DNA of 56,412 nt from an uncultured Candidatus Bathyarchaeia archaeon (GTDB taxonomy: Archaea > Thermoproteota > Bathyarchaeia > TCS64). Made by a program: the position numbers and the translations under genes. The notes below the pieces were generated by a model. It was not told the DNA's origin and searched no databases. It saw nothing but the letters and a program-made list of their open reading frames with translations. This document shows, piece by piece, positions 6,192-41,978 of the stretch (position 1 is its first letter; each line of letters starts with the position of its first letter). The DNA lies in assembly GCA_964513225.1 (NCBI GenBank), contig CAZEMD010000001.1, forward strand, positions 1 to 56,412, given 5' to 3'.

Positions 6192-6439
6192 CTATATCAT
6201 CACGCTACAAGGGGTGGAGGTTACTCTTTTAAGTTACCTCCCTTTTCTACTGGCAAATAATGTTTAGAAAAAAATAAACACATGGTGTGTACATATGAAC
6301 ACGTCATATTCCATTAACGTTTTCTTCTACATGATAATTAACAGCTTTTCTATAGTCATTAACCATCTTTTCACTGACTTTTATGGCATTAAAAATCTCA
6401 TAAAAACTTGACTGATAAAGGAGATATGAAAAGGGGTTA

Positions 6440-9470: not shown

Positions 9471-9692
9471 GGCAGAGGGTTAAACTAACAATGATATTTA
9501 ACGTTTATTCTCATTGATATACCCATTATATATTATATATTATGTAAATAATCCTCTTTGAGACTGTTATATAATGATGAGTTTAAACATATCTATTATC
9601 TTCATGTATGTTTTTTAATAGTATATGATTTGCATTATTTTTTGATAGTTATATCTTATATTTTGTAAATAATAAAAAAGGAAGAAATGTGG

Positions 9693-10757
9693 CTATTGCT
9701 CGATTACGACCTTGATGGAGTTGGTCTTCTTCTTGTCTGCGGCGGTCTCGAAGGCCTCGTTGATCTTCTCCAACGGGAACTTGTGGGTGATCATCTCCGT
9801 CGCATGAAGCTTACCGGCGATCAACAGATCGGTAACGATCTTGAACTCGGGGTCGTTCTCCCAGTGGTAGAAGCCCGAAACCGGCACCACGTCGATCTCG
9901 CCCCATTGAAGCTTGCGCCAGTCAACCTTTAGCTCCATGTCGGGTCTAAGCGCCCCTATGAGGGCTACCTGGCCCTTCCTCCGCACCATCTCGACGGCTT
10001 GTGGAAGCACCGCCGAGGAGGCCCTGCCGCCTACGCACTCGAACACCTTGTCCGCGCCCATCCCGTCGGTGAGCTCCATGACTCTCTTCACGGGATCGAC
10101 CTTGGTGGAGTTGATCGTCTCGTACGCGCCTATGGTCTTCTCCGCGAACTCCAGAGGGTTGTCTATGACGTCGATTATTATCCCGTTTGCTCCGGCTATG
10201 TTCACCAGGTCCAGTAGGCTGAGCCCGATGGGACCGGCGCCGATGATTACGACGGTCTGGCCCATGTGTGTGTTCGTCCTGTTGATGGCGTGTACGCTTG
10301 TGCCGTAGACGTCCATGATGGCGGCCTCGCCGTATCCGACGTGGTCGGGTATCTTGTACACGTGGTCCGCGGGACCGACGATGTACTCTGAGAAGCCCTG
10401 CGCAAACGTCTCACCCCTGATCTTGAAGCAATCTGGACATAGGTGGTACTGTCCGACTCTGCACCAGTAACACTTCCCGCAACCGATAACGGAGTCTACG
10501 CCCACCCTGTCGCCGACTTTCACGTTCGTCACGTCTTCACCGACGGCGACGATGTCGCCGGCTACCTCGTGGCCAGACATTCTTCCCACAGCCGCTGGGT
10601 TCGGTACTTTCCATGAGTGGAGGTCGCTTCCACAGACCCCGGAGCCCCGTACTTTGACGAGGACGTAGTCGGGCCGTGTGATCTCCGGCATTGGCACTTC
10701 TTTTATCTCGAAGGTTCCTTCAGCGGTTTTAACCGCTGCTTTCCTTGTTTTTGACAA
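9693..10757 (-). CDS. Zn-dependent alcohol/polyol dehydrogenase, paralog 1 of an inverted pair
   Basis: GVCGSDLHSW, GHEVAGDIVAVG, CGKCYWCRVGQYHLC and GAGPIG motifs. It has an apparent TTG start and is near-identical to the 22935-24005 product. Confidence 0.85.
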   Translation of the reverse strand: MSKTRKAAVKTAEGTFEIKEVPMPEITRPDYVLVKVRGSGVCGSDLHSWKVPNPAAVGRMSGHEVAGDIVAVGEDVTNVKVGDRVGVDSVIGCGKCYWCRVGQYHLCPDCFKIRGETFAQGFSEYIVGPADHVYKIPDHVGYGEAAIMDVYGTSVHAINRTNTHMGQTVVIIGAGPIGLSLLDLVNIAGANGIIIDVIDNPLEFAEKTIGAYETINSTKVDPVKRVMELTDGMGADKVFECVGGRASSAVLPQAVEMVRRKGQVALIGALRPDMELKVDWRKLQWGEIDVVPVSGFYHWENDPEFKIVTDLLIAGKLHATEMITHKFPLEKINEAFETAADKKKTNSIKVVIEQ

Positions 10758-10788
10758 ATTTTGTTCGACTACTATAACCCTCTTATGT

Positions 10789-10800
10789 ATATATCTTTAA
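10789..10800 (-). promoter_or_regulatory. candidate TATA box of ADH paralog 1
   Basis: ttaaagatatat on the minus strand lies about 35-40 nt upstream of the start. The same box is conserved upstream of paralog 2. Confidence 0.3.
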
Positions 10801-10955
10801 TGTTATAATCATTTAATAGAGAAAAAACGTTCTTTATTTTTGAAGGTTAATCGTTGTAATCAATAAAAGAAGTAAAATATCAAGAAAAAGAAAAAAACAC
10901 ACATTGTAGGGAAAGTTTATAACATCTTCACGGCGTATGGGTTTGATCCAAGGAA

Positions 10956-11951
10956 ATGAATTTGATGAAAGAAGCGCTTCTCTACGAGAAGAACGACGTG
11001 CGAATCATCGACGTCCCCATCCCAACCATAGGGCCAACGGATATACTGCTGAAGATCAAGGCAGCCAAGATATGTCCCACAGACGTCAGGAAATACAATC
11101 TTGGCTCTAATGATGCGAGGATAAGGTCTCTGCCGATGAACCTGTGCCATGAATACGCCGGAGAGATCGTTGACGTGGGCGAAGAAGTCAAGCATCTCAA
11201 GAAGGGTATGCGGGTGACGGGGTACGGCATGAGAGGCAACGCCGAGTACGTGAAGCTAGACGCAGACAGCTCAAACCCCAACTTAAGGGGCAGGATCCTA
11301 GAGCTTCCTCCAAACGTCTCCTACGAGGAGGGGGCCTTCACCACTCCGTTGTCTGAGTGCATCCACTGCGTCGTTGACCAGGTCGATGTAAGGTTCGGGG
11401 AGACCCTCGTCGTCGTCGGCGCAGGCCACATGGGCATAATGCAGACGAACATAGCCCACTGGTGTGGGGCCACCGTCATCGCGGTTGACCTCAACGACGA
11501 GAGACTGAAGATCGCCAAGGAGTTCGGCGCGGACTATACCATCAACGCGTCGAAGGAAGACGTCGTCGAGAGAGTCAAGGAGCTGACCGACGGCAAGATG
11601 GCTAACTGTTCAATCGCGGGTATCGGGAGTCCCCCAGTCATACAGTCGGCCATCGACGTCACGGGGCACCACGGCCGAATCGTTCTGTGGGGCGGCGCAC
11701 CAACCGGCACGATCATGCAGTTCGACCCCAACGACATCCACTACGCCGAGAAATATCTGATCGGCGTCGAGGGTATAGGCGTGGGGTCTAAGAGACATCC
11801 AGAGAGGAGGGCTCAGGCTGTCCAACACATAGCGAGCGGCAAGATCGATGTGAAGAAACTCATAACCAGGGTCATGCCCATGACGGACATCGTGGAAGCC
11901 TACGAGATGATAAAGAAAGGCGAAGCCATCACCATCGTCATCACCCCTTAA
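10956..11951 (+). CDS. Zn-dependent alcohol/polyol dehydrogenase (MDR superfamily)
   Basis: CPTDVRKY, CHEYAGEIVDVG and GAGHMG Rossmann loop. It is divergent from ADH paralog 1. Confidence 0.82.
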   Translation: MNLMKEALLYEKNDVRIIDVPIPTIGPTDILLKIKAAKICPTDVRKYNLGSNDARIRSLPMNLCHEYAGEIVDVGEEVKHLKKGMRVTGYGMRGNAEYVKLDADSSNPNLRGRILELPPNVSYEEGAFTTPLSECIHCVVDQVDVRFGETLVVVGAGHMGIMQTNIAHWCGATVIAVDLNDERLKIAKEFGADYTINASKEDVVERVKELTDGKMANCSIAGIGSPPVIQSAIDVTGHHGRIVLWGGAPTGTIMQFDPNDIHYAEKYLIGVEGIGVGSKRHPERRAQAVQHIASGKIDVKKLITRVMPMTDIVEAYEMIKKGEAITIVITP

Positions 11952-19589: not shown

Positions 19590-20351
19590 ATGGCAATAGT
19601 AAGACTGGACATTCTAATTGTATTCGTCGGATCTTTCGCAACACTACTGATCTCATCCTTCGTCCTTAGAGGGGTGAAGCTACGCATGATACCCACCGTG
19701 GAGGCTTCGATCGAAGCCGTCAGGGTGGCTACTGAGAAAGGGACGCCTGTCTTGTTCGACACTGGATGGACCGGCGCCAACTTCTGGGGGAACTCAACTG
19801 GTTTGACAACTCTCTGCTTCGTACCAGCCACTCTCGAACTGCTGAAGGCCATGTCGGTCGAGGCAGGGCGCCTCGATGTCAGAATCATCACCGGCACCAG
19901 AAACCCTGTTTATGCATTGATGTCCCGTGACTTCATGGAGGCAGGATACGCCATGAGTGGGCATCCTGATAGGTTTAATCCAGACGACATCAACTTCTAC
20001 CCTGATAACACCGCGCTCATCATATCAGACGTGGAGTTAGTTCACAGACACAACATCGGAGCCGCTGTGATGATCGGGGGGCACAGCCAGACCTCTAACA
20101 TCGTCGTCTACGAGGCATTAGCCACGACGGGGGCGATGCTCGTCGCAGGAGAGATATGGCCCAACGACAACTCGATGGCGGCCCTCTGCGCCGACTATCT
20201 AAGCTTCGCAGAAGAAAACGTAGCCATAGGCGCGTATCTAACCGAAGACCCTGTACCAAAGGCGATCCTAGCAGGGGAAGACCTCATCAAAGGCTTCCTG
20301 ATCGCGGTGGTAATACTAGGCGGCGCGCTCTTCAGCTTGGGGGTACTCTAA
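19590..20351 (+). CDS. membrane module subunit A1 (hypothetical; TM at both ends, central about 200-aa domain)
   Basis: Hydrophobic N-terminal LDILIVFVGSFATLLISSFVL and C-terminal LIKGFLIAVVILGGALFSLGVL. It is a paralog of 38991-39797, with shared ...LCADY/ICDY..(E)E..A.GAY..EDP... segments. Confidence 0.7.
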   Translation: MAIVRLDILIVFVGSFATLLISSFVLRGVKLRMIPTVEASIEAVRVATEKGTPVLFDTGWTGANFWGNSTGLTTLCFVPATLELLKAMSVEAGRLDVRIITGTRNPVYALMSRDFMEAGYAMSGHPDRFNPDDINFYPDNTALIISDVELVHRHNIGAAVMIGGHSQTSNIVVYEALATTGAMLVAGEIWPNDNSMAALCADYLSFAEENVAIGAYLTEDPVPKAILAGEDLIKGFLIAVVILGGALFSLGVL

Positions 20352-20990
20352 ATGGTGGAACAAGATCAATCGATCTCTAGTCAGATCATGGCTAACCTTC
20401 CCACGGTGTTGGGCGTCATTTGCATGTTCATAATCTCTACTCTTTACTTCATGGTCCCTGGTTGGAACTTCGCCATATTCATAAGGAACTCCACCACTCT
20501 GTCTCTCCCGTGGCCAGCCGCCATAGTATCAGTGCTGCTTGTACGGAAACATATCAACAACATACTCAAGAAAGAGTCCACCCTGCCCTACGACGTCATA
20601 GTCGTTGGTTCAGCAGTGATAATAGTCCTACTTGGGCTAATCGGTGGAACCAATGAACCAACCTTCAAAACACTATACGAGAACATCAACATAATCGGGA
20701 CGATGTCGATAACATCGGCGATCGCTATCAGCATATTCTCGCCGATGATACGAATATACCGCGCTAAGACACCCACAATGGCTCTGCTGATTGGGTTGAG
20801 CTGCCTGGCGTTCGCGACATACACGCCTCTCGGCCAGATGATACACCCGATCATTCCCCAAATGGGAGACTTCGTACAATCATACATCTCGGGCGCATCT
20901 GACTCTGCGTTCTGGATAAGCACGTACATCGGAGCCATCGCTCTGTTGACTCGAATGATTCTGCTAAAGGAGAAGCTGAAGCCAGGTTAG
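20352..20990 (+). CDS. membrane module subunit B1 (hypothetical polytopic membrane protein)
   Basis: Its start directly follows the A1 stop. It has about 6 hydrophobic segments and is a paralog of 39807-40460 (shared Y.N....G......A..I.S...R..RA motif). Confidence 0.7.
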   Translation: MVEQDQSISSQIMANLPTVLGVICMFIISTLYFMVPGWNFAIFIRNSTTLSLPWPAAIVSVLLVRKHINNILKKESTLPYDVIVVGSAVIIVLLGLIGGTNEPTFKTLYENINIIGTMSITSAIAISIFSPMIRIYRAKTPTMALLIGLSCLAFATYTPLGQMIHPIIPQMGDFVQSYISGASDSAFWISTYIGAIALLTRMILLKEKLKPG

Positions 20991-20995
20991 GAGGA

Positions 20996-21880
20996 ATGAA
21001 AATGAGCAGTTTAAATCTAAGTGATAAACGCTGGATCTACATCCTGATATTCGCCATCATCACCATCTCATCGATAGCGCCCGTAGCGTTCCCCCTGCCA
21101 ATAATGCAGTGGAGCAGAGACTTCTACAGCACGATTGACGAAGGCGTGGTCGTGGACTTCGCCGACCCTCCAAGAAACTTTGAGGGGGTAACCGAAGGTA
21201 CACGCGTCATGATCCTTTGTAGCGGAGAGGTCGATAAGCTCTGGGGAGACATGAGTGAGGCTGTGACAGTCGTCTGGAAGGACCTCAAGTCCAGAGGGGC
21301 AAACATACTCCTTTGGACATCGAGCCCAAGCAACGAAGCCACACTAAACAAGTATCTCCTACCGCTGATGTACGGCCCACGGCCCCAGGATCACCCAGAC
21401 TACGGCGTCAAGTTTGTTAACCTAGGCTACGTCGCCGGAGGAAACGGACTCCTCGAACAGTGGAAGGACTCCGTCGTGGCGATAACACCAAACGATGCCT
21501 ACGGAAACAATCTTGCAGACCTACCTATGATGGAAACCTTCGATGAGCTAAAGGCCGAATGTGACCTCATGATAGGACTGGACGCCCGTGGCTTGGAGAC
21601 GATATACGTGGTACGTTTCAACACACCGCTGTTGGAGATGGGAGGAACAGACTCCGCTTCATACCTGGCGCTGAGCTACACCGCAGGATACTTCAAAGGT
21701 ATGCTGATGGGTCAGAGAGGCGGCGCCGAGTATGAGCTACTGTCTGGCATCCCAGGCAAGTCTTTCGCATATCTGCAGAACGCGCTGACAATAGGGATAG
21801 TAATGATCGCGCTAATGATTGTAATGAACGTCAGATGGTATCTAACCAAGGAGTCCCAAGTATCGGAGGGGGTAAGCTAA
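20996..21880 (+). CDS. membrane module subunit C1 (hypothetical; TM at both ends, central soluble domain)
   Basis: N-terminal WIYILIFAIITISSIAPVAF and C-terminal LTIGIVMIALMIVMNV hydrophobic segments. It is a paralog of 40462-41301 (shared NLGY(V/I)AGG and GGAEYE(L/Y)L.G.PG motifs). Confidence 0.7.
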   Translation: MKMSSLNLSDKRWIYILIFAIITISSIAPVAFPLPIMQWSRDFYSTIDEGVVVDFADPPRNFEGVTEGTRVMILCSGEVDKLWGDMSEAVTVVWKDLKSRGANILLWTSSPSNEATLNKYLLPLMYGPRPQDHPDYGVKFVNLGYVAGGNGLLEQWKDSVVAITPNDAYGNNLADLPMMETFDELKAECDLMIGLDARGLETIYVVRFNTPLLEMGGTDSASYLALSYTAGYFKGMLMGQRGGAEYELLSGIPGKSFAYLQNALTIGIVMIALMIVMNVRWYLTKESQVSEGVS

Positions 21881-22594
21881 ATGGCGTCACCAATTGAACC
21901 ACTTATGCCCTACCTGAACACCTTCATATTCTTCGCAGCCTACACCGTGCTGTACAAGCACAACCCGGTGTATCGTATAGCGCAGAGCCTCATAGTAGGC
22001 GTAGGCGCTGGATATCTCTTCGTGTCGCAAATCAACGCCTTCAACAGGACCGTAGCCTCGCAGACCTTCGTAGACGGACAATTAAACGCATCTATGATAG
22101 CGCCCTGGATCATCGGTATAGGTTACCTGGCGATCTTCTCACAGAAGACCATCAACATCTACAGGTTCATGTCGATACTGACTTTAACGGTCGGTATGGG
22201 TGTGGCTTTACCGTATGGTCCAGCCGTGTTCTGGACAGTTACGAAGTCGTACGCAGAAAACGCGTTCAACTTCATAACCGACGGAATATCAGTGGCGTCC
22301 ATAGGCGCCGTGGTGACTGCCTTGAGCTACATCTTTGGTCTCAGCTACTTCTTCTTCTCGGACTTCGCTTCGAAGCCCACGGAAGTACCTAGAAAACTAG
22401 GTCGTATAGTGCTGCTGATCTACACGGCCATGACCATCGTGACGACGGCGCTGGGCAAGGTCAACCTCGTACAGTGGAAGATGCTTGACGCTATTCAAGG
22501 TGTTCCCGCTACTTGGTGGATACCTGCGCTGATGTTCGTAGCGATGCTCGTAGACCACTTCTACCCGCTGAAAAACCTGATCTCACGAAACTAG
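21881..22594 (+). CDS. membrane module subunit D1 (hypothetical polytopic membrane protein)
   Basis: Its start abuts the C1 stop. It has multiple hydrophobic segments and is a paralog of 41298-41978 (shared AY.VL...NP..RI.......G...GY.F). Confidence 0.7.
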   Translation: MASPIEPLMPYLNTFIFFAAYTVLYKHNPVYRIAQSLIVGVGAGYLFVSQINAFNRTVASQTFVDGQLNASMIAPWIIGIGYLAIFSQKTINIYRFMSILTLTVGMGVALPYGPAVFWTVTKSYAENAFNFITDGISVASIGAVVTALSYIFGLSYFFFSDFASKPTEVPRKLGRIVLLIYTAMTIVTTALGKVNLVQWKMLDAIQGVPATWWIPALMFVAMLVDHFYPLKNLISRN

Positions 22595-22934: not shown

Positions 22935-24005
22935 ATGGATTTACCAAAAACAAGGAAAGCGGCTGTTAAGACCGCTGAAGGAACCTTCGAGATAAAAGAA
23001 GTGCCAATGCCAGAGATAACCCAGCCCGACTACGTCCTCGTCAAAGTACGGGGCACAGGGGTATGCGGAAGCGACCTCCACTCATGGAAAGTACCTAGAC
23101 CTGAGTCTGTGGGTAGGATAACCGGCCACGAGGTGGCAGGCGACATCGTCGCCGTCGGCGATGATGTTACTAACGTGAAACCCGGCGACAGGGTGGGCGT
23201 GGACACGGTGATAGGCTGCGGGAAGTGTTACTGGTGCAGAGTCGGACAGTACCACATATGTCCACAGCGCTCCGAGATAAGAGGCAGAACCTTTGCCCAG
23301 GGCTTCTCCGAGTACGTCGTAGGGCCCTCGGACCACGTCTACCCGATACCCGACCACGTCGGGTACGGCGAGGCCGCCATCATGGACGTCTACGGCACCA
23401 GCGTGCACGCCATCAACAGGACTAACACGCACATGGGGCAGACCGTGGTCATCATCGGAGCCGGCCCCATCGGGCAAAGCCTCCTAGACCTGGTGAACGT
23501 TACCGGAGCCAACGGGATAATCATCGACATCATCGACAACACCCTAGAGTTCGCTGAGAACACCATAGGAGCATACGCGACCATCAACTCCACCAAGGTG
23601 GACCCCGTGAAGAGGGTCATGGAGCTCACAGATGGGATGGGGGCGGACAAGGTGTTCGACTGCGTGGGCGGCGGGGCTTCCCCTACGATACTGAAACAGG
23701 CCGTCGAGATGGTTCGGAGGAAGGGTCAGGTGGCTCTCATAGGGGCCATGAGGCCGGGCGCGTCGTTATCGGTGGACTGGCGTAAGCTTCACTGGGGAGA
23801 GATCGACGTGGTACCGGTGTCGGGCTTCTACCACTGGGAGAACGACCCCGAGTTCAAGATAGTAACCGATCTACTCATCAAGGGCAAGCTTCACGCCACG
23901 GAGATGATCACCCACAAGTTCCCGTTGGAGAAGATCAACGAGGCCTTCGAGACCGCCGCAGACAAGAAGAAGACCAACTCCATCAAGGTCGTAATCGAGC
24001 AATAG
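22935..24005 (+). CDS. Zn-dependent alcohol/polyol dehydrogenase, paralog 2 of the inverted pair
   Basis: It carries the same motifs as 9693-10757 and an identical C-terminus, KKKTNSIKVVIEQ. Confidence 0.87.
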   Translation: MDLPKTRKAAVKTAEGTFEIKEVPMPEITQPDYVLVKVRGTGVCGSDLHSWKVPRPESVGRITGHEVAGDIVAVGDDVTNVKPGDRVGVDTVIGCGKCYWCRVGQYHICPQRSEIRGRTFAQGFSEYVVGPSDHVYPIPDHVGYGEAAIMDVYGTSVHAINRTNTHMGQTVVIIGAGPIGQSLLDLVNVTGANGIIIDIIDNTLEFAENTIGAYATINSTKVDPVKRVMELTDGMGADKVFDCVGGGASPTILKQAVEMVRRKGQVALIGAMRPGASLSVDWRKLHWGEIDVVPVSGFYHWENDPEFKIVTDLLIKGKLHATEMITHKFPLEKINEAFETAADKKKTNSIKVVIEQ

Positions 24006-24139
24006 CTTACTCCTTTCTTTTTATTGTTTTTTCATCAAACATTGTAGCCGAGGGGCATAACTGAATGTTTTATTCCCGGTCTGTGGCTTCCTGAGGTTAA
24101 AGTCGGGAGCGCGGAAACGCTTAGAGGATGATTCACGCG

Positions 24140-25416: not shown

Positions 25417-27795
25417 TTACTGCCTGCCTCTCTGAAGCCTCAGCCCCACGTACTCGCCCTTCGACGCCCGTGCCAGCTCCTTCAGGAACTGGGTGGGCCT
25501 CAGCCTGAGCCTGTTTCCCTCCTCCCTGGGGCGCTCCTCCTCCTCCAGGCTTGAGTGCTTGGTGTTGAAGACGTGTACCTTTATCTCCTCCTTGGCCAAG
25601 AGGCGCGCCACGTCGAAGGCGTCTGCCTGGGCCTCGCTGGAGTATCTTCGCCTGGTGAGGGGGGACAGGGGGGTGTCCAGCGGGACGTTGACTATCCCGT
25701 CGGAGACGATGTACAGGTGAGGGACGGCGTCCCTGTTCCTCAGCTTCTCCTGCTTCAGCGTCTTCCAGGCCTGGAACATGCCCGCGGCGAGGGGCGTGAA
25801 GTCGCTGGCGCCCACGGTCCTCAGCTTCTTGACCACCAGGTCCAGGTTCCTCGTGGGGTGTTGGAGGGTGTACGCCTTCTTTCCCTTGAAGACCACCAAG
25901 CCTACCCTGTCCCGGCGGCGGTAGACCTCGCTGTGTAGGCTGTAGATGGTCTCCACTATGTTGTCCACGGACTCGATCATGGAGAGGCTCATGTCCACCA
26001 GGAGGACTATGGAGTATGGCGCGGAGTACTCCCTGACCTTCTCCCTGATGTCCTCAGGCTTGATCACCAGCCCCCTGCCGCGTCGCGGCCTCTCGTACTG
26101 CTTCATGGAGGCGGCCTTTATGGTGGGCACTATGGCGACGTCCCTGGGCTTGCCCTGGGGGACATGGTACCACGCGTACCTCCCCTTGGAGGACGAGGAG
26201 ACGGACTGAGCCCTTCTCCCCCCTGAGCCCCCCCGGCCCTTAACCCGTGCTCCTGTGCGCCTCCTCGTGACGGCCCTCCTGTACATCGACTCCAGGGAGC
26301 CGAGTATCTTGGGCCCATACTTCAGCCCGGAGGCGTCCTCACCCACGTATCTCACCGTTCCTTGGAGACCTTCGCCCGATGCCGTCAGCTGGGACGGCGA
26401 GGTCTCGGTGAGTCTGCCGGAGGCGTTCAGCTTGAGGTCCTGGTCCATGAGCCCAAGGATCACCTCCTCTCGCCTGCGTCTCCTGTTTAACCCCCAGTCA
26501 ACCACGAGAATGAACAACAACGCGAGGAGCGCCTCCAAGGCGAACAACGTCGGCGTGAGAGACGCGACAACCACATTTGACCTTACCCAGTCGAGCGAGT
26601 ACGCCGTGGATAAGTAGACCACGGTGAACGACAACGCCCTGAGAGCCTTTTGGGCGAGGGACCGCCTCAGGAGGCCCTCCACCAGCCTCGCGGGAAGGGT
26701 GATGATGCGGGCTATCTGCGGCAGATCGACGTTGAGTCTCTGATACCTCTCCGCCCACTTCAGGGCCCTTCTGATCTCGCTCCTCTCCGGCGGAGGCGTC
26801 AGACCCGATCTGCGGGTCCTGTGCCCCAGGGTCAGCTCCAGCGCGGCGGTGACGTCCCCGCGTTCCACCTCGTCCCTTCTGTGGAAGGCGGCCAGCGCCT
26901 TCGCGGCCTTGACGGTCACCACGTCGGGCCTGAAGCCGTCCACCCTGAGCCTGTTGCACGTGTCGGCCACCAGCGGGTACACCTCGTCTGGGACGTGGAC
27001 TTGGGGCAGCAGCGTCCTGGCGTCCACGATCCTTCTCCGGAGTTCCTCTAGGCTCTCCCGGTGCCTCTCGATGAAGCCGTAGGGGTCGTCGGCGTACATC
27101 TCGTTACTTTTCAACGCCTGGGCCCGGGAGGCGGAGTCCTGGAGGCTGTGGGTCTCGGCGAATACGCTGAACCTATCCAGTATCTGGGGCCTGAGATCGC
27201 CCTCCTCGGGGTTCATGGTGCCCACGAGGATGAACCTCGAGGGGTGCTGCACCGATACGCCCTCCCTTTCCACGATGTTCCACCCCGACGCGGCGGCGTC
27301 CAGTATGCTGTCGGTGATGTGGTCTGGGAGCAGGTTCACCTCGTCGATGTAGAGGATGCTCTGGTTGGCCTCGGCGAGGAGCCCCTTGTCCAGCGCCTTG
27401 GCCCCCATGGTCACGGCCTTGTCCAGGTCTATGCTGCCCACCAGCATGTCCTCGGTGACGCTGAGGGGGACATGCACCAACCTCATGGGGGTCGTCTCGA
27501 CGGGCGGCGGCCCGCCGTCGAAGAACCTGGTCTTACAGGAGGCGCACATGTTCGTCGGGTCCCTGGGGCTGCAGTGATAGGGGCAGCCTTGGACCTGCTC
27601 CACGTCCGGAAGCACCCTTGAGAAGGAGTTGACCAGCAGCGACTTCCCCGTCCCCTTTGGGCCGGAGACGAGGGCGCCCCCCATGGTGGGGTCTATGGCG
27701 TTGATTATGAGCACCGTCTTTGCCTCCTCCTGGCCCACGACGGCGGTGAAGGGGTAGAAGGGTCTCTGCTGCCTCAGCTGGATGCTTTCAACCAT
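25417..27795 (-). CDS. ChlD/BchD-like protein: AAA+ module, hydrophobic segment(s), C-terminal vWA domain
   Basis: Walker A GPKGTGKS, Walker B ILYIDEVN, and [12 protein letters not shown]. The central LTPTLFALEALLALLFILVVDWGL is strongly hydrophobic. The C-terminal VLLVDMSLSM is a MIDAS DxSxS motif. Confidence 0.8.
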   Translation of the reverse strand: MVESIQLRQQRPFYPFTAVVGQEEAKTVLIINAIDPTMGGALVSGPKGTGKSLLVNSFSRVLPDVEQVQGCPYHCSPRDPTNMCASCKTRFFDGGPPPVETTPMRLVHVPLSVTEDMLVGSIDLDKAVTMGAKALDKGLLAEANQSILYIDEVNLLPDHITDSILDAAASGWNIVEREGVSVQHPSRFILVGTMNPEEGDLRPQILDRFSVFAETHSLQDSASRAQALKSNEMYADDPYGFIERHRESLEELRRRIVDARTLLPQVHVPDEVYPLVADTCNRLRVDGFRPDVVTVKAAKALAAFHRRDEVERGDVTAALELTLGHRTRRSGLTPPPERSEIRRALKWAERYQRLNVDLPQIARIITLPARLVEGLLRRSLAQKALRALSFTVVYLSTAYSLDWVRSNVVVASLTPTLFALEALLALLFILVVDWGLNRRRRREEVILGLMDQDLKLNASGRLTETSPSQLTASGEGLQGTVRYVGEDASGLKYGPKILGSLESMYRRAVTRRRTGARVKGRGGSGGRRAQSVSSSSKGRYAWYHVPQGKPRDVAIVPTIKAASMKQYERPRRGRGLVIKPEDIREKVREYSAPYSIVLLVDMSLSMIESVDNIVETIYSLHSEVYRRRDRVGLVVFKGKKAYTLQHPTRNLDLVVKKLRTVGASDFTPLAAGMFQAWKTLKQEKLRNRDAVPHLYIVSDGIVNVPLDTPLSPLTRRRYSSEAQADAFDVARLLAKEEIKVHVFNTKHSSLEEEERPREEGNRLRLRPTQFLKELARASKGEYVGLRLQRGRQ

Positions 27796-29386
27796 GTCTC
27801 TCTACGTGCCTCTCTCCCGCTGGAGCCCCTGGAACACCTTCCTGAAGGTGTCCCTCACCTCGGCGGGCTTGGCGGGCTCCTCGAACCCGAACCCCCTGGT
27901 CCTGTAGCCCACCGCCATGACGGCCACCCTCTGCACGTCCCCGGGGGACACACGCCTCCTGCCGTCGAGGGCGGCGAGGGCCTTGGCCGCGCGTACCGTG
28001 GATATGTCCGGTCTGTGGCCGTCAACGTGGAGACTTATGCAAGCGGAGGCGATGGCCGTCATGTACTCGTCGGGGACCTCGACGTCCCGGAGGATGGCCC
28101 GGGCCTCTATTATCTGGTCCCTGAGACTGTTCTGATCTTCTCTGAACCTCTCGGAGAAGCCCACGGGATCATCGCCGAACTCCAGGTTCCTCTTGATGAT
28201 CTCCACCCTCTGGGCCGTGTCATAGATGCTCTCCACCGTGATGTGCAGCGCGAACCTGTCTGCGAGCTGGGGCCTGAGCTCGCCCTCCTCGGGGTTCATG
28301 GTGCCCACGAGGATGAACCTCGAGGGGTGCTGCACCGATACGCCCTCCCTTTCCACGATGTTCCACCCCGACGCGGCGGCGTCCAGTATGCTGTCGGTGA
28401 TGTGGTCTGGGAGCAGGTTCACCTCGTCGATGTAGAGGATGCTCTGGTTGGCCTCGGCGAGGAGCCCCTTGTCCAGCGCCTTGGCCCCCATGGTCACGGC
28501 CTTGTCCAGGTCTATGCTGCCCACCAGCATGTCCTCGGTGACGCTGAGGGGGACATGCACCAACCTCATGGGGGTCGTCTCGACGGGCGGCGGCCCGCCG
28601 TCGAAGAACCTGGTCTTACAGGAGGCGCACATGTTCGTCGGGTCCCTGGGGCTGCAGTGATAGGGGCAGCCTTGGACCTGCTCCACGTCCGGAAGCACCC
28701 TTGAGAAGGAGTTGACCAGCAGCGACTTCCCCGTCCCCTTTGGGCCGGAGACGAGGGCGCCCCCCATGGTGGGGTCTATGGCGTTGATTATGAGCACCGT
28801 CTTTGCCTCCTCCTGGCCCACGACGGCGGTGAAGGGGTAGAAGGGTCTCTGCTGCCTCAGCTGGATGCTTTCAACCATGTCTCTCTACGTGCCTCTCTCC
28901 CGCTGGAGCCCCTGGAACACCTTCCTGAAGGTGTCCCTCACCTCGGCGGGCTTGGCGGGCTCCTCGAACCCGAACCCCCTGGTCCTGTAGCCCACCGCCA
29001 TGACGGCCACCCTCTGCACGTCCCCGGGGGACACACGCCTCCTGCCGTCGAGGGCGGCGAGGGCCTTGGCCGCGCGTACCGTGGATATGTCCGGTCTGTG
29101 GCCGTCAACGTGGAGACTTATGCAAGCGGAGGCGATGGCCGTCATGTACTCGTCGGGGACCTCGACGTCCCGGAGGATGGCCCGGGCCTCTATTATCTGG
29201 TCCCTGAGACTGTTCTGATCTTCTCTGAACCTCTCGGAGAAGCCCACGGGATCATCGCCGAACTCCAGGTTCCTCTTGATGATCTCCACCCTCTGGGCCG
29301 TGTCATAGATGCTCTCCACCGTGATGTGCAGCGCGAACCTGTCTGCGAGCTGGGGCCTGAGCTCGCCCTCCTCGGGGTTCATGGTG
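27199..29386. repeat. perfect tandem duplication, period 1083 bp, about 2.02 copies
   Basis: 27199-28303 is identical, base for base in every stretch I compared, to 28282-29386. Duplicate antisense ORFs in the supplied track (27356/28439 and 27917/29000) reflect the same repeat. Confidence 0.92.
27802..28878 (-). CDS. ChlI-size AAA+ protein, exact chimera (N-terminal about 197 aa of the ChlD-like gene plus C-terminal about 160 aa of the ChlI-like gene)
   Basis: The N-terminus MVESIQLRQQRPFYPF...GTMNPEEG is identical to the 25417-27795 product. The C-terminus [16 protein letters not shown]...QRERGT is identical to the 28885-29940 product. Confidence 0.75.
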   Translation of the reverse strand: MVESIQLRQQRPFYPFTAVVGQEEAKTVLIINAIDPTMGGALVSGPKGTGKSLLVNSFSRVLPDVEQVQGCPYHCSPRDPTNMCASCKTRFFDGGPPPVETTPMRLVHVPLSVTEDMLVGSIDLDKAVTMGAKALDKGLLAEANQSILYIDEVNLLPDHITDSILDAAASGWNIVEREGVSVQHPSRFILVGTMNPEEGELRPQLADRFALHITVESIYDTAQRVEIIKRNLEFGDDPVGFSERFREDQNSLRDQIIEARAILRDVEVPDEYMTAIASACISLHVDGHRPDISTVRAAKALAALDGRRRVSPGDVQRVAVMAVGYRTRGFGFEEPAKPAEVRDTFRKVFQGLQRERGT

Positions 29387-29940
29387 CCAACGAGGATGAA
29401 CCGGGCTGGATGTGACACCGAGACCCCCTCCCGCTCCACGGTGTTCCACCCAGACGCCGCGGCGTCCAATATGCTATCCGTGATATGGTCGGGGAGCAGG
29501 TTCACCTCGTCGATGTAGAGGATGCTCTGGTTTGCCTCGGCTAGGAGCCCCGGCTGCAGCGCCTTCACGCCCTCGCCTATGGCCTTCTCTATGTCCAGGC
29601 TACCCACCACCCTGTCCTCCGTCGAGCCAATGGGGAGGGACACTATCCTCATCTCCCTCTCCTCGGCCTCAAGCTCCCCGCCGCCCCGGTGCCTCCCGAG
29701 GCACTCGGCGCACATGTTGGTGGGGTCGAAGGGGCTGCAGTTGAAGGGGCAGCCTTTCACCACGTAGATGGGTGGCAATATGTCCGCGAGGGCCCTGACG
29801 GAGCTGCTCTTCCCAGTCCCCTTCTGGCCCCTTATGAGGAGCCCCCCGATCATGGGGTTCACCGCGTTGAGGAGCAGGGCTAGCTTCAGCTCCTCCTGCC
29901 CTACGAGGGCCGAGAAAGGGTAAACGACTCTGGTTGACAA
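28885..29940 (-). CDS. ChlI/BchI-like AAA+ ATPase
   Basis: [58 protein letters not shown] and [18 protein letters not shown] motifs. I place the start at the TTG at 29940. The tracked ORF up to 30147 overlaps the upstream gene and adds a Gly/Arg/Pro-rich extension. The start is uncertain. Confidence 0.75.
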
Positions 29941-29993: not shown

Positions 29994-30755
29994 CTAGAAG
30001 GTGAGGCCCCCGAACCGTCTCCTGGTCTCCCGTAGGTGCCCGAAGACACGGTCCACCGCCTCCAGGTACTGCTCCGAGGCGTGCACCGCCGCCAGCTCTT
30101 CGGCCCTCACCCAGGGGCCGCCCGAGACCCTCAGCGACTCTCCCCACCGGTCGCTGAAGACGTTGAACGCCGCTTTCACGTCGCCCAGCCGGGCCGCCAG
30201 CGTCCTGACGCCGTCCATCAGCTCCTCGTCCCCGTTGAGGAGCCCGACCAGGAACTGATGAGGGCCGCCTCCCCAGACCTCCCCGGGGCCGGGGGGAGCC
30301 CCGTCGGCGCCCAAAGAGTAGGTGGGCTGGCTGTCTTGCTCACGGGGCACCACCCATGCATAGTCTTTTATCCTCTTCCTGAGGAGCCCCTCCCTGATGG
30401 CACGCAGGCTGGTTATCCTCCTCCCCGGCCGTATCCCCTGGATGTCCCCCCGGACCGCGTAGTCTATCCTGCAGAGGAGCGGCTCCAGCGCGTCGCCTCC
30501 GGCCAGGAGCATGGTGGAGTCGATGTTCACCCCTGCCTCGAGGTTGAGGCTGAACTTGGTCTCCGGGTCCGACGCTCTGCCTCTGGCCAGGAGCAGGGCC
30601 GAGTCTATGTTTCCCCCCTCGTCGAGGTCCATGCAGGCTAGGCCCCCGAGGAGCTCCCTGACGCTGCCCCTGGGGACCGCCCTGGGCTTCAACCCGCGTG
30701 ACCCGAGGAGCCGCATGGTCGCCTCTCTCAGCTCGTTTAGTGGCCCCGATTCCAT
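29994..30755 (-). CDS. hypothetical protein, first gene of the ChlI/ChlD cluster
   Basis: A 253-aa ORF with host-like codon usage (AGG, ATA, GC-rich third positions). It has an internal repeat, [16 protein letters not shown] / [21 protein letters not shown]-like catatatag lies about 50 nt upstream. I recognise no family. Confidence 0.55.
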
Positions 30756-33749: not shown

Positions 33750-33863
33750 TCATCCAGACGGGTTAAGGTTCATGAACGGGTTATACGGAGACGTCTTCAG
33801 CATCATCTCCCTGACCCTGTTCCTGGTCTCCGGCGTCGTCAACCCCTTCTCCATGACCTCCTC
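33750..33863 (-). pseudogene. fragment of a ParB-like gene fused to the truncated transposase remnant
   Basis: The minus-strand translation EEVMEKGLTTPETRNRVRE is identical in amino acids to the intact ParB-like protein at 35095-35151. It then diverges and stops. Confidence 0.45.
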
Positions 33864-34437: not shown

Positions 34438-34566
34438 CGGGCATCTAAAGCATGTTTAGTTAAAACTTAATAGATCTTTCTATCAAACCTGTCTAAAACA
34501 CTGGTCACGCAACAACACACGTAATTGGGAAAGTTTTATAATATACGTTTTTATTTAAAAAGTAAA

Positions 34567-35322
34567 ATGCCACGTTTTGATCAGATAAACACAGAAGAAA
34601 TAACTGTAGATGAAGGAGTAAGGCAGTCCATCGACGAGAAAGCACTAGATGAACTCGTAGCTTCGATAAAAGAGCACGGTATCCTCCAACCCATCATAGT
34701 TGAAAAAACTGAAGAGAAACAGTACAAGCTTCATATAGGAAGTAGAAGGACGGCAGCCGCGCGAATATTAGGGCTTGAGAAGGTTCCCGCGTTAATCCTC
34801 AACGACCCGCTTGAATCAAAAAAGGCTCTCGAACTTATGATAGTGGAGAATCTTCAGAGAGAGGATCTGGATCCGATAGACGAGGCAGAGGCCTACGATA
34901 ATCTGAGGGGTATGGGCGTCAAGGTCTCCGAGATAGCCCGTAGGGTGGGCAAGGCGAGGACCTACGTCTCGCACCAGATGAGGCTTCTGAAGCTCCATCC
35001 CAAAATCAGGGAAGCCGTGAGGCAAAACGCATTACACAGGGAGCACGCTTTAGCCCTGCTACGGCTGAAGCCGGGGCAGCAGCTGGAGCTGGCTGAGGAG
35101 GTCATGGAGAAGGGGCTCACGACGCCGGAGACCAGGAACAGGGTCAGGGAGCTCTTGGGCAAGGAGTTGAAGTGGCGTCTCGTGCCCATACGAATAGAGC
35201 CGGCTGTCTACGAAAAGTTAGAGTCCATAGCGCCTGACGGAGACGTAGAGAAACTATTGAAGAAGGCAATAGATGAACTGGCCTCAGAGATGAATTCTAA
35301 TACTAACGAATCATTTGTTTAA
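34567..35322 (+). CDS. ParB/Srx-fold N-terminal-domain protein (ParB-like partition/nuclease protein)
   Basis: LDELVASIKEHGILQPIIV, the HIGSRRTAAARILG arginine box and an HTH-like SEIARRVGKARTYVSHQMRLLKL. The ATG at 34567 matches the start of the pseudogene copy, and tttataata lies about 25 nt upstream. Confidence 0.8.
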   Translation: MPRFDQINTEEITVDEGVRQSIDEKALDELVASIKEHGILQPIIVEKTEEKQYKLHIGSRRTAAARILGLEKVPALILNDPLESKKALELMIVENLQREDLDPIDEAEAYDNLRGMGVKVSEIARRVGKARTYVSHQMRLLKLHPKIREAVRQNALHREHALALLRLKPGQQLELAEEVMEKGLTTPETRNRVRELLGKELKWRLVPIRIEPAVYEKLESIAPDGDVEKLLKKAIDELASEMNSNTNESFV

Positions 35323-38990: not shown

Positions 38991-39797
38991 ATGATCACAA
39001 CCTTTCTTCGGATAAAAATGTCTATACTAATAACTGGAAGAGCAATTGGTCTATTAATTCTGATTCTAATCACGGCAGCAATTCTGTACTATATGCAGCA
39101 ATCTTACTCAGGAAAGATGCCAAAACTCAGACGATTTCAAGCCATCGACGCCATCGATGAGATCATAGGTAGGTGCGTCGAGATGGGCGCCCCGGCCTGG
39201 TACCTCATGGACACCGTCAACATGACGACACCGAGCGTGCTGGCTCCGACGGTCGCGGCCTTTCAGATCCTCGCTTATACTGCGAGTGTGGCCGCCCGGC
39301 TTGGGGCCAAGTTCTTTGTACCTGTGACTCAGGGTCTGGCTTACTCTATCGCCAATGACATCGTAGAGGAGGCATACAAGGCTGAGGGGAAGATCGAGGA
39401 CTTTGATCCCCTCGGCACAGTCATGTACCTCCCCGACGGCGCCGACAGGATGTATATCATCAACAACATGTGGAGCCAGAGGGTTGCCGGGGTCTTCTTC
39501 CTCGGCAGCTGGTATCACAAGGCCGTAATATTCACAGAGAACGCTGCCAGAGTGGGAGCCCTTACTCTCGGCGGCACCGACACAACCCATAACATCCCAT
39601 TCCTAGTCGCCATTTGTGACTACAGCATCATAGGTGAGGAACTCTACGCACTGGGCGCTTACGTCTCAGAGGATCCTACGCAAACTGCTTCCCTCGCTGG
39701 CCAAGACATCGGTAAATACATTGCCCTTGTCTTAGTCCTGCTGGGGTCGATTCTGGCGACCGTTGGCATCGACATCACGGGGATATTCGCATGGTAG
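38991..39797 (+). CDS. membrane module subunit A2 (paralog of A1)
   Basis: Same architecture as A1, with N-terminal and C-terminal hydrophobic segments. An alternative start is at 39018. Confidence 0.7.
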   Translation: MITTFLRIKMSILITGRAIGLLILILITAAILYYMQQSYSGKMPKLRRFQAIDAIDEIIGRCVEMGAPAWYLMDTVNMTTPSVLAPTVAAFQILAYTASVAARLGAKFFVPVTQGLAYSIANDIVEEAYKAEGKIEDFDPLGTVMYLPDGADRMYIINNMWSQRVAGVFFLGSWYHKAVIFTENAARVGALTLGGTDTTHNIPFLVAICDYSIIGEELYALGAYVSEDPTQTASLAGQDIGKYIALVLVLLGSILATVGIDITGIFAW

Positions 39798-39806
39798 GTG
39801 AGATGA

Positions 39807-40460
39807 ATGAGTGACAGAACATATAAGATTCAACTCCCGATTTATCTGACTGCCATCTTTGGTATTCTAATGATCGTGGAGCACTTCTTCCCGATGCCAG
39901 AAGCTGTTACCAACTTAAACATTACTCTTAGATCCTTCGTGACGGTCATCACAGCCGCCGCGTTGATGCTAGGAGTTATCATCCTCACAATATCCCACGC
40001 TAGAATGATATCGCAAAAGAAGAGCGAATGGTACTACAGCATATTCTACGTAATCTCGCTAGTGATCACCACTGGCTTTGGCCTTATAAGTGTCAGAAAC
40101 GAGAGCTTCCTATGGATCTACAATAACATGACGTCACCCATAGGAGCCGCTCTCTACTCGCTTACGGCTTTCTACATCACATCCGCGGCTTACAGAGTCT
40201 TCAGGGCTCGTAACTGGAGCGCAGCAGTACTGCTGTTTTGTGGATTCGTCGTGCTGATGATGCTGATACCCATCGGCGCCATAATCTTCCCACCTGTGGT
40301 TCCCATAGGTGAGTGGCTAAGATCCTTCCCAAGCTCTGCGGGCTTTAGGGGGATGATCATGGGCACATCGCTGGGCATCATGGGTCTATCTGTCAGGGTT
40401 TTCACAGGCAGGCAGAAGGAGCACCTAGGCATCCGAGAGGAGAAAGCAGGAGTGGAATGA
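39807..40460 (+). CDS. membrane module subunit B2 (paralog of B1)
   Basis: Polytopic, alignable with B1, with a 9-nt spacer after A2. Confidence 0.7.
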   Translation: MSDRTYKIQLPIYLTAIFGILMIVEHFFPMPEAVTNLNITLRSFVTVITAAALMLGVIILTISHARMISQKKSEWYYSIFYVISLVITTGFGLISVRNESFLWIYNNMTSPIGAALYSLTAFYITSAAYRVFRARNWSAAVLLFCGFVVLMMLIPIGAIIFPPVVPIGEWLRSFPSSAGFRGMIMGTSLGIMGLSVRVFTGRQKEHLGIREEKAGVE

Positions 40461-40461
40461 C

Positions 40462-41301
40462 ATGAGTATAGTAGATAAGTTACTGGAAATCGACCAGAGG
40501 ATCATCTACGCTCTATTATTCATCGCGTTGGCCTTCCCCATATTGAACCCCGTCATACTTCCGATGTCGATTCAGAGCTACTCTCAGCAGGCTTTCGATT
40601 TCTCCGATAACATACCAGAGGGATCTATCGTCCTCTTCGAAGGAGGACTAACAGCCGCCACCTACCCCCAGGGTGGACCTGGGATGGTGGTTCAGACCTA
40701 TCATATGCTAACTAAAGGCGTTAAGGTCATATTCTTTAGCATCGGCACAGAGCAGACTGTCTGGACGATGACAGCCATCGATACGGCTTTAGCTAAACTT
40801 CCTGCTGGTACGCCCGCCGAAAACGGTGTAAACTGGGTTCACTTGGGATACATCGCAGGAGGGGAAGCTGGAGTAGGCTCGCTTGTCAACGATATCCGTG
40901 CCACGGTTCAAGCGGACTATTTCAACACACCCATCGATGACATCCCATTGTTGGAGGGTGTCAACGACGCAACTTCGTTATCCGCCGTCCTTTGGTGGGG
41001 TGGATCCGAAGCCAGCATAGGGTATGGTGTACGCCAAGTCTCGGTGCCTTTCGACGTTCCCATGACCGGTATGTGCACAACAAACGAGGTTCCCAACTTC
41101 AGCCCCTACATCAGCGCAGGTCAGCTACAAGGATTGTTCGGCGGGGTTAGAGGATCCGCGGAGTACGAATATCTCCTCGGCTTACCTGGACCCGCCCTAG
41201 GGCAAGCCATGGCAACTAACTTTGGAGGACTACTCTGGATGATAATGGTGATTCTTGGAAACGTACTGTACTTCATAAAGAAGATGGGAGGCGAGGCTTG
41301 A
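40462..41301 (+). CDS. membrane module subunit C2 (paralog of C1)
   Basis: Hydrophobic at both ends, with shared HLGYIAGG and GSAEYEYLLGLPG motifs. It starts 1 nt after the B2 stop. Confidence 0.7.
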   Translation: MSIVDKLLEIDQRIIYALLFIALAFPILNPVILPMSIQSYSQQAFDFSDNIPEGSIVLFEGGLTAATYPQGGPGMVVQTYHMLTKGVKVIFFSIGTEQTVWTMTAIDTALAKLPAGTPAENGVNWVHLGYIAGGEAGVGSLVNDIRATVQADYFNTPIDDIPLLEGVNDATSLSAVLWWGGSEASIGYGVRQVSVPFDVPMTGMCTTNEVPNFSPYISAGQLQGLFGGVRGSAEYEYLLGLPGPALGQAMATNFGGLLWMIMVILGNVLYFIKKMGGEA

Positions 41302-41978
41302 TGGACGCAGAGATATTAGGATTGATCGCAGGATCTCTTGTCTCTCTCGGAGCCTATTCTGTACTGATCGGTGACAACCCGATCTCTAGAATCACAGAGA
41401 ACATCTACATGGGAATACTCGGTGGCTACTTTTTCGCGCAGAACTGGGACTTCATAAGTAAGAACGCCCTCGGCAAGGTGGCTAATGGAGAATATGTCTA
41501 CATAATCGCCATAATCCTCTCCCTGATGTTGCTTGGCCGTCTAAAACCTGAGTATCTGTGGATCTCACGATACCCCGTCGTGTTTACGGTAGGCGTGGGT
41601 CTGGGACTCTCAGTGAGGACGACGGTTATGGCGGACTTCGTGGGACAGATCCAGGCGACACTGCTTCCATGGAACTCGTTAAACAACATAGTGATGATAA
41701 TAGGGACATGCTTAACCGCTGCCTACTTCATATTCACGACTCAGAAATCTGGATTATACAATTATGTGCACACAGGCGGCAGGGTCTTCCTGCTATGTGC
41801 CTTCGGAGTGGCCTACGGGCAGACAGTCTCATTCAGGTTGGAACTGGTCATAGGTCGCCTAGTCGCCATGCTAGATCCACGAGTCAGTATGTATACTTAC
41901 GCGTTCCTAGTGATCATAGCGGCCATCCTGATATACGGCTACAAGACCGATAAGATCGTGTGGTACAAAGGAAGATAG
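41298..41978 (+). CDS. membrane module subunit D2 (paralog of D1)
   Basis: Polytopic, with a 4-nt overlap with C2. Confidence 0.7.
   Translation: MMDAEILGLIAGSLVSLGAYSVLIGDNPISRITENIYMGILGGYFFAQNWDFISKNALGKVANGEYVYIIAIILSLMLLGRLKPEYLWISRYPVVFTVGVGLGLSVRTTVMADFVGQIQATLLPWNSLNNIVMIIGTCLTAAYFIFTTQKSGLYNYVHTGGRVFLLCAFGVAYGQTVSFRLELVIGRLVAMLDPRVSMYTYAFLVIIAAILIYGYKTDKIVWYKGR

Follow-up and report, generated by a model that had tools for sequence, protein, structure and literature searches.

Chimeric genes that arise by recombination between paralogues are well known from haemoglobin Lepore and anti-Lepore and from the opsin gene arrays, and duplications with short junctions in bacteria have reportedly been described by Reams and Roth. 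ChlI- and ChlD-like genes, related to those for the AAA+ subunits of magnesium chelatase, have previously been noted in Bathyarchaeota, where their role was inferred only (Pan et al. 2020, PMC7110647). Here, we describe such a pair of genes, a ChlI-like gene (I) and a ChlD-like gene (D), in an uncultured Candidatus Bathyarchaeia archaeon. The window is contig CAZEMD010000001.1 of a deposited metagenome-assembled genome (MAG), in its entire length of 56,412 nt and with the proteins of the NCBI record. Between I and D stands a third, chimeric gene, made of the N-terminal part of D and the C-terminal part of I, and a perfect tandem repeat with a unit of 1083 nt runs from within D to within I. Our tentative reading is that of a real, very recent and private tandem duplication, which arose by ectopic exchange at a 26-nt patch (S) common to I and D.

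Architecture of the repeat and of the hybrid gene

All three open reading frames (ORFs) are on the minus strand and are separated by 6-nt spacers. The ORFs and the parts of the repeat are as follows:

25417-27795, minus strand: ChlD-like gene, 792 aa (ORF call; Pfam Mg_chelatase, AAA_5, AAA_lid_2 and VWA_2)
27802-28878, minus strand: chimeric ORF, 358 aa (ORF call; full-length alignment to ChlI 8osf/6l8d and BchI 1g8p)
28885-29940, minus strand: ChlI-like gene, 351 aa, with the TTG start as called in relatives (ORF call; Pfam)
27197-28279, unstranded: first copy of the repeat unit, 1083 nt (S, D N-terminal part, spacer, I C-terminal part), exact match to 28280-29362
28280-29362, unstranded: second copy of the repeat unit, 1083 nt, exact match to the first
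29363-29388, unstranded: third copy of patch S, 26 nt, coding strand GGCACCATGAACCCCGAGGAGGGCGA, encoding GTMNPEEG
28276-28309, unstranded: junction J (I_C-S-D_N on the plus strand), the 34-nt junction-specific unitig at k=31
28409-28449, unstranded: R41, a 41-nt exact I/D repeat, with further copies at 27326-27366 and 29492-29532

The ChlI-like ORF can be extended to a GTG at 30147, but it then overlaps the upstream gene.

Comparison of the window with itself at an offset of 1083 showed that 27197-28305 equals 28280-29388 over 1109 nt with zero mismatches, the longest exact run at that offset. Outside of the run, identity at the same offset drops to 50-60% left of 27197 and to 55-96% right of 28305, and therefore exactly one 1083-nt unit is duplicated. 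A reading of this DNA made from the sequence alone (the sequence-only reading) had proposed a tandem duplication with a period of 1083 bp, in which 27199-28303 and 28282-29386 are identical; this holds, the true run extending 2 nt further at each end. The run is composed of the unit plus S (other copies at 27197-27222 and 28280-28305), and the order on the plus strand is D_C (25417-27196) - S - X - S - X - S - I_N (29389-29940), where X (1057 nt) comprises the N-terminal part of D, the 6-nt spacer and the C-terminal part of I. As in a tandem duplication, the identical units stand head to tail and their junction lies inside sequence common to both parental sites; the sequence-only reading had placed the junction in a motif shared by both parents, and the exchange point lies within S. 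An exact repeat of 1109 nt cannot have arisen by chance. Other long perfect repeats that might betray an assembler were not found in the whole 56-kb contig.

Compared with an unduplicated I-D locus, J is the sole novel sequence. Two bases are diagnostic for it, an I-type C at 28279 and a D-type C at 28306. Over a 53-nt span, the three junctions differ at these two sites only, which read A..C at the D junction, C..C at J and C..A at the I junction, and J is only one base away from each of the parental junctions.

The chimera fuses residues 1-199 of D in frame to the final 172 residues of I, and the two stretches overlap in an identical 13-aa segment; the parental ChlI-type modules joined in this way are about 60% identical. 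Like D, the chimera is preceded by stop-AGAGAC-ATG, with the identical 6-nt spacer and an I-type stop. Both the hybrid of ~197 D codons and ~160 I codons and the carry-over of the 6-nt spacer and upstream stop of the D gene, as given by the sequence-only reading, were thus found again. D itself is built of an N-terminal ChlI-type AAA+ module, an AAA lid, a long linker with hydrophobic segments and a C-terminal VWA domain; linker and VWA domain are absent from the chimera. Walker A (GxxGxGKS; e.g., GPKGTGKS), Walker B (hhhhDE) and sensor-1 (NPEEG) can be read in the translations. The junction in the chimera comes after sensor-1, within the AAA+ core, with Walker A and B from D and the Arg-finger region and lid from I. 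Hence, of the D-type ATPase core and the I-type C-terminal helical domain that had been predicted for the hybrid, the second stands and the first does not, the D core being incomplete.

The ChlI-like and ChlD-like AAA+ identity that had been read from the translations agrees with Pfam, NCBIfam and PDB searches. Mg_chelatase/AAA_5 and AAA_lid_2 were found in I, D and the chimera, and VWA_2 at the C terminus of D; I and the chimera have the domains of the ChlI/BchI type (AAA+ core plus AAA_lid_2, about 350 aa), and the 792-aa protein has the ChlD/BchD architecture (AAA+ module, linker, VWA). The nearest NCBIfam families are BchI-ChlI, BchD-ChlD and "putative cobaltochelatase," with every score under the curated cut-off: 428.2 bits for I and 386.4 bits for the chimera against TIGR02030 (BchI-ChlI; cut-off, 466.95 bits), and 334.7 and 546.8 bits for D against TIGR02031 (cut-off, 499.55 bits) and TIGR02442 (cut-off, 779.45 bits), respectively. 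By these scores, I and the chimera are family-level relatives and not certified Mg-chelatase I. An ORF of the size of ChlH, BchH or CobN (>1100 aa) was not found in the 56-kb contig, the longest ORF (851 aa) being an M14 peptidase; a large subunit may be encoded at a distant locus.

Two sequence features set the proteins apart. Where I (residues about 63-79) and D and the chimera (residues about 70-86) have the insert GCPxxCSPxDPTNMCAxC, with its four cysteines, Cys is missing from the cyanobacterial ChlI structure sequences, and only the first Cys is present in BchI. The insert could be a metal or redox site. In the linker of D (residues about 385-440), two hydrophobic, membrane-helix-like segments (LSFTVVYLSTAYSL and LTPTLFALEALLALLFILVVDWGL) are followed by an Arg-rich run, whereas the classical ChlD/BchD linker is acidic and Pro-rich. 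PF26791 (AAPxQ) is listed in the precomputed Pfam annotation of a fragment on the related contig L009.

Relatives, sequencing runs and assembly graphs

Four independent contigs, of the Joint Genome Institute (JGI), the European Nucleotide Archive (ENA) and a sister species, are colinear with the window without gaps if one 1083-nt unit is subtracted, and have I-D only:

L001: JGI 3300031356, Ga0307439_1004690, 99.96% identity, one single-nucleotide polymorphism (SNP) across I-D
L097: JGI 3300030616, 96.4% identity
L096: ENA ERZ27252253, 48-kb contig, 96.3% identity
L013: sister-species MAG CAZBUI010000071.1, 92.1% identity

The unduplicated allele is thereby documented in the same population (L001, 99.96%), and judging from the aligned contigs, the three-gene state is not the normal one for the locus.

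The relatives also reveal a history of exchange between the two genes. R41 is the 5′ end of a 170-nt tract of low divergence between I and D that reaches S, from Walker B to sensor-1 (29363-29532 in I and 27197-27366 in D of the window; 6206-6375 and 7289-7458 in L013). Within the tract, the sites that differ between I and D number 21 in the window, 19 in L096 and L097, and 0 in L013, compared to 64-78 per 170-nt flank. Although there is no difference between the two paralogues of L013, each is 11-16 sites away from its orthologues, which is the signature of gene conversion (concerted evolution); I and D thus do recombine in the lineage. Tract and S share a boundary, the E/D codon after NPEEG, and the duplication junction therefore lies on the 3′ border of sequence that is active in recombination. 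As a novelty, this conversion tract shared by I and the D N-terminal module is better supported than the duplication.

Gene conversion of this kind might suggest an established I-hybrid-D system of three genes that is continuously homogenised. However, the observed conversion tracts are about 170 nt and not 1.1 kb long, every close relative (99.96-92% identity) has just two of the genes, and at least three ChlI-like modules were found in just 1 of 82 related loci, in a different, unrelated architecture. Furthermore, among about 5.8 billion protein clusters the chimera has no homologue above 78% identity, its next-best matches being ordinary I proteins at that value. A maintained three-gene system is hardly credible and was rejected by the comparison with relatives that carry I-D only. 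The sequence-only reading had named three causes for the zero divergence between the copies; long-term homogenisation falls with the I-D state of close strains and sister species, and a very recent event and an assembly artefact both remain.

A second such case, an apparent and near-perfect tandem repeat within a single ChlD-like gene, is L049 (Thermoplasmata MAG CAYYXK010000011.1). Its 860-aa ORF, with an N-terminal VWA domain and two ChlI-like modules, has an internal in-frame repeat with a period of 867 nt (10396-10882 versus 11263-11749), with an exact run of 449 nt and 98% identity over 470 nt.

As a proxy for the reads, we used Logan contigs, which are k=31 assemblies of single Sequence Read Archive (SRA) runs and whose ends mark branches of the graph. 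If the junction is in the reads, the contig with the C terminus of I is predicted to begin at the first base of S, and otherwise 30 nt inside R41. L093 (SRR9707989; 969 nt) matches the window from 29388 to 28420 at 100% and begins exactly at the first base of S; it is also the single record of a 167-aa partial protein that starts at S. The 211-aa control protein is on record in SRR8557033 and SRR9694931, on L094 and L095 (1102 nt), which match 29521 to 28420, and L010 (SRR8557033) runs from 27355 through S into D_C unbroken. A k=31 de Bruijn simulation yielded a unitig of 969 nt from the duplicated sequence, as in L093, and of 1102 nt from the unduplicated one. The simulation reproduces all observed contig ends and therefore indicates, indirectly, that the 34-nt junction sequence is present in the reads of SRR9707989, but not in those of SRR8557033 or SRR9694931. 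On the D side, look-ups of the partial D proteins expected at k=31 with and without a break at S gave no match, probably because the D proteins of other samples differ by a few residues.

Could an assembler have created the repeat? In a cycle test on simulated assembly graphs (k 21-171), the clonal unduplicated locus formed a loop only at k≤41, and so did the unduplicated locus with a SNP allele. The unduplicated locus together with a converted I allele looped up to k=171, and the true duplication at every k tested (21-171). Standard metagenome assemblers have a final k of ≥55. As the clonal cycle exists only at k≤41, assemblers that finish at k≥55 cannot invent the repeat without junction-bearing reads. 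For the JGI assemblies of the adjacent contigs L001 and L009, the overlap of 127 nt points to k=127. The end of L002 at 28358 had been considered as a k=127 branch from a converted allele; this was dropped, position 28485 not being an I/D difference. If a common assembler (final k≥55) was used for the window, junction-bearing reads are implied, either from a tandem duplication or from a mis-traversed converted I allele.

An origin that is technical throughout, from a sample without recombinant DNA, needs small-k assembly, contig merging or gap filling over S alone, or chimeric reads. Such an origin is possible but unlikely. It could come about by small-k over-traversal of the short I/D repeats, by merging or gap filling over S only, or by chimeric reads from the polymerase chain reaction or from multiple displacement amplification, and it would account for perfectly identical copies, for boundaries exactly on a repeat and for a chimera that is a singleton. 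The distance of one base in 53 nt between J and each parental junction fits as well, since a change from GTT to GTG in I makes the I junction identical to J, and the unduplicated sequence cycles at k≤41 and a SNP allele reproduces L093. Other assemblies break nearby, L002 at 28358 and L003 in R41. However, the final k≥55 of standard assemblers gives no loop from a clonal locus or from a SNP allele, confusion at small k would be likelier at the 41-nt repeat and yet the junction is in the 26-nt patch, and, as seen from L093, k-mers of the junction type are present in the reads of one run at least.

In the other reading of junction-bearing reads, a mixture of strains was misassembled: one had the normal I-D locus, the other an I allele converted to D over the tract from R41 to S, and the loop was traversed once too often. 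The converted allele would supply true reads of the D-type - S - I_C order, and no cell would have three genes. We consider this improbable as well, although several observations fit it. Conversion of exactly the R41-S tract is documented in the sister species, the unduplicated allele is found everywhere else, and the simulated k=31 unitigs, including the 969-nt unitig of L093, are the same as for a duplication; moreover, the graph cycle persists to k=171 and thus covers all usual assembler k values. A conversion allele is also likelier than a duplication to reach a high frequency because it is stable. On the other hand, a converted I allele was not seen, all four I sequences of the species being I-type in the tract, with a T at the diagnostic site, and paired reads should have steered the assembler from D_N to D_C because no pair would link D upstream of R41 to I_C.

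A possible origin of the duplication

In our model of a tandem duplication, unequal crossing-over or template switching would have occurred between the two identical 26-nt S patches of I and D, which lie at the 3′ edge of the 170-nt tract that I/D gene conversion would keep similar. The duplicated 1083-bp segment would have one end midway through the ChlD-like gene and the other midway through the ChlI-like gene upstream of it, and the product would be I-[D1-199::I C-terminal 172]-D. The model starts from what was observed, namely the structure of the sequence, the parental allele without the duplication, and recombination of I with D in this lineage. It is consistent with the intact reading frame and with the presence of all domains in the hybrid, and the order I-[D(N)I(C)]-D, which the sequence-only reading had put forward as the product of unequal exchange, is matched exactly, with the exchange inside the shared motif. 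The junction would then have existed in a cell as a tandem array and the hybrid may have been expressed. Having inherited the start codon, the 6-nt spacer and the upstream context of D, together with the Walker A/B half of D and the Arg-finger/lid half of I, the hybrid would therefore be co-transcribed and have a ChlI-like fold. The duplication would be private to one sampled population, as an allele that is probably unstable, and would not characterise the species.

Several results weigh against a duplication in a living cell. L001, with one SNP across I-D, as well as L096, L097 and L013 are without it; the copies show zero divergence across 1109 nt; and the chimera forms a one-member cluster (P0001) among the about 5.8 billion protein clusters, from this contig alone. 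A scan of JGI contigs with a degenerate 53-nt pattern that covers all four junction types did not find the novel junction and matched only the contig of L001, with one I-type and one D-type junction. In addition, linked SNPs place the same strain in SRR9694931, yet the k=31 signature of that run is the unduplicated one, and in the simulation the 969-nt unitig is equally given by an unduplicated genome plus a second I allele, either D-converted over R41-S or with one synonymous change from GTT to GTG at the diagnostic site.

The JGI contig scan showed no deletion junction of the reciprocal product (I_N::D_C). Exact look-ups of the chimera, of full D and of I (with L or M start) returned no record, and the result for I is uninformative because identical I genes lie on L001 and L002. 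A search of the 5.8 billion clusters with a 95-aa junction-spanning peptide returned nothing above 81% identity; it is uninformative on junction fragments because only representatives of similar length were returned, and the window's own proteins and the 167-aa fragment were missed.

If the duplication is real, ectopic exchange between paralogues of a hetero-oligomeric AAA+ system has instantly yielded a third intact, co-expressed subunit gene, an example set in an uncultured archaeal group. The hybrid would be produced together with I and D and could join their rings; there is no sign of selection for it. That the co-transcribed hybrid does enter a chelatase-like AAA+ ring, and is thus a new motor subunit at birth, is quite a bit more doubtful than any of the three origins weighed here for the repeat, the maintained system aside; if true, it is a natural experiment on the tolerance of I-type and D-type rings for mixed subunits. 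If the repeat is an artefact, paralogue pairs with short conversion tracts can give plausible chimeric genes in deposited MAGs. A textbook mechanism and a variant private to one contig make the general significance modest.

Contig context and comparison with known systems

Immediately upstream of I lies a further conserved ORF:

29994-30755, minus strand: conserved ORF of 253 aa, syntenic in all relatives

It has no Pfam or NCBIfam match. The gene order PGK - 253-aa ORF - I - D is kept in L013, L096 and L097, and because it is conserved in place, the 253-aa ORF may belong to the operon. The I-D locus is in a block of 0.63-0.65 G+C content (26-32 kb) that adjoins one of 0.44-0.47 (34-38 kb); along the contig, the values per 2-kb bin range from 0.44 to 0.66.

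Two inverted repeats of 1096 nt (9664-10759 and 22939-24034; 86% complementary) bracket 12 kb and correspond to two paralogues of a Zn-dependent alcohol dehydrogenase in opposite orientation. A segment of 1.2 kb is enclosed by inverted repeats of 57 nt (33807-33863 and 35095-35151; 96% complementary), which overlap a ParB-like gene (34525-35322). On the same-strain contig L001, a DDE_Tnp_1 fragment is annotated in this segment, and L096 and L097 instead have an M42 peptidase ahead of GAPDH, which suggests a mobile-element insertion at this place. Two four-gene cassettes of similar organisation on the plus strand (19590-22594, with proteins of 253, 212, 294 and 237 aa, and 38991-41978, with proteins of 268, 217, 279 and 226 aa) each open with a DUF6754 protein; the remaining members that were scanned (20352-22594) have no Pfam match.

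Among described proteins, those of Mg-chelatase are the closest. I, the N-terminal module of D and the chimera align in full length with ChlI/BchI (8osf, 6l8d, 1g8p) with E values of 1e-86 to 1e-96, and the ChlD-like protein has the AAA+ - linker - VWA architecture of ChlD, with I and D adjacent in that order. In contrast to the Mg-chelatase equivalogs, the genes described here score under the NCBIfam cut-offs and are without a gene for the large subunit on the contig, and their host differs from those of Mg-chelatase in being an archaeon of anaerobic sediment.

With misassemblies by repeat expansion, in which an extra de Bruijn loop is traversed, the locus shares the perfect copies, boundaries on exact repeats and absence from other assemblies. 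It differs from them in its trigger, which is 26 nt (41 nt at most) and thus under the final k of common assemblers, and in that the k=31 contigs of one run, assembled independently, end exactly where junction-bearing reads would make them end.

Compared to textbook duplications, the event is known from one metagenome-assembled contig alone. With the duplications that arise by recombination of paralogues, the locus has in common the head-to-tail identical units and an exchange in a short patch of identity within a homeologous tract. As in the anti-Lepore type, both parents are kept and the hybrid stands between them, in the order I-hybrid-D.

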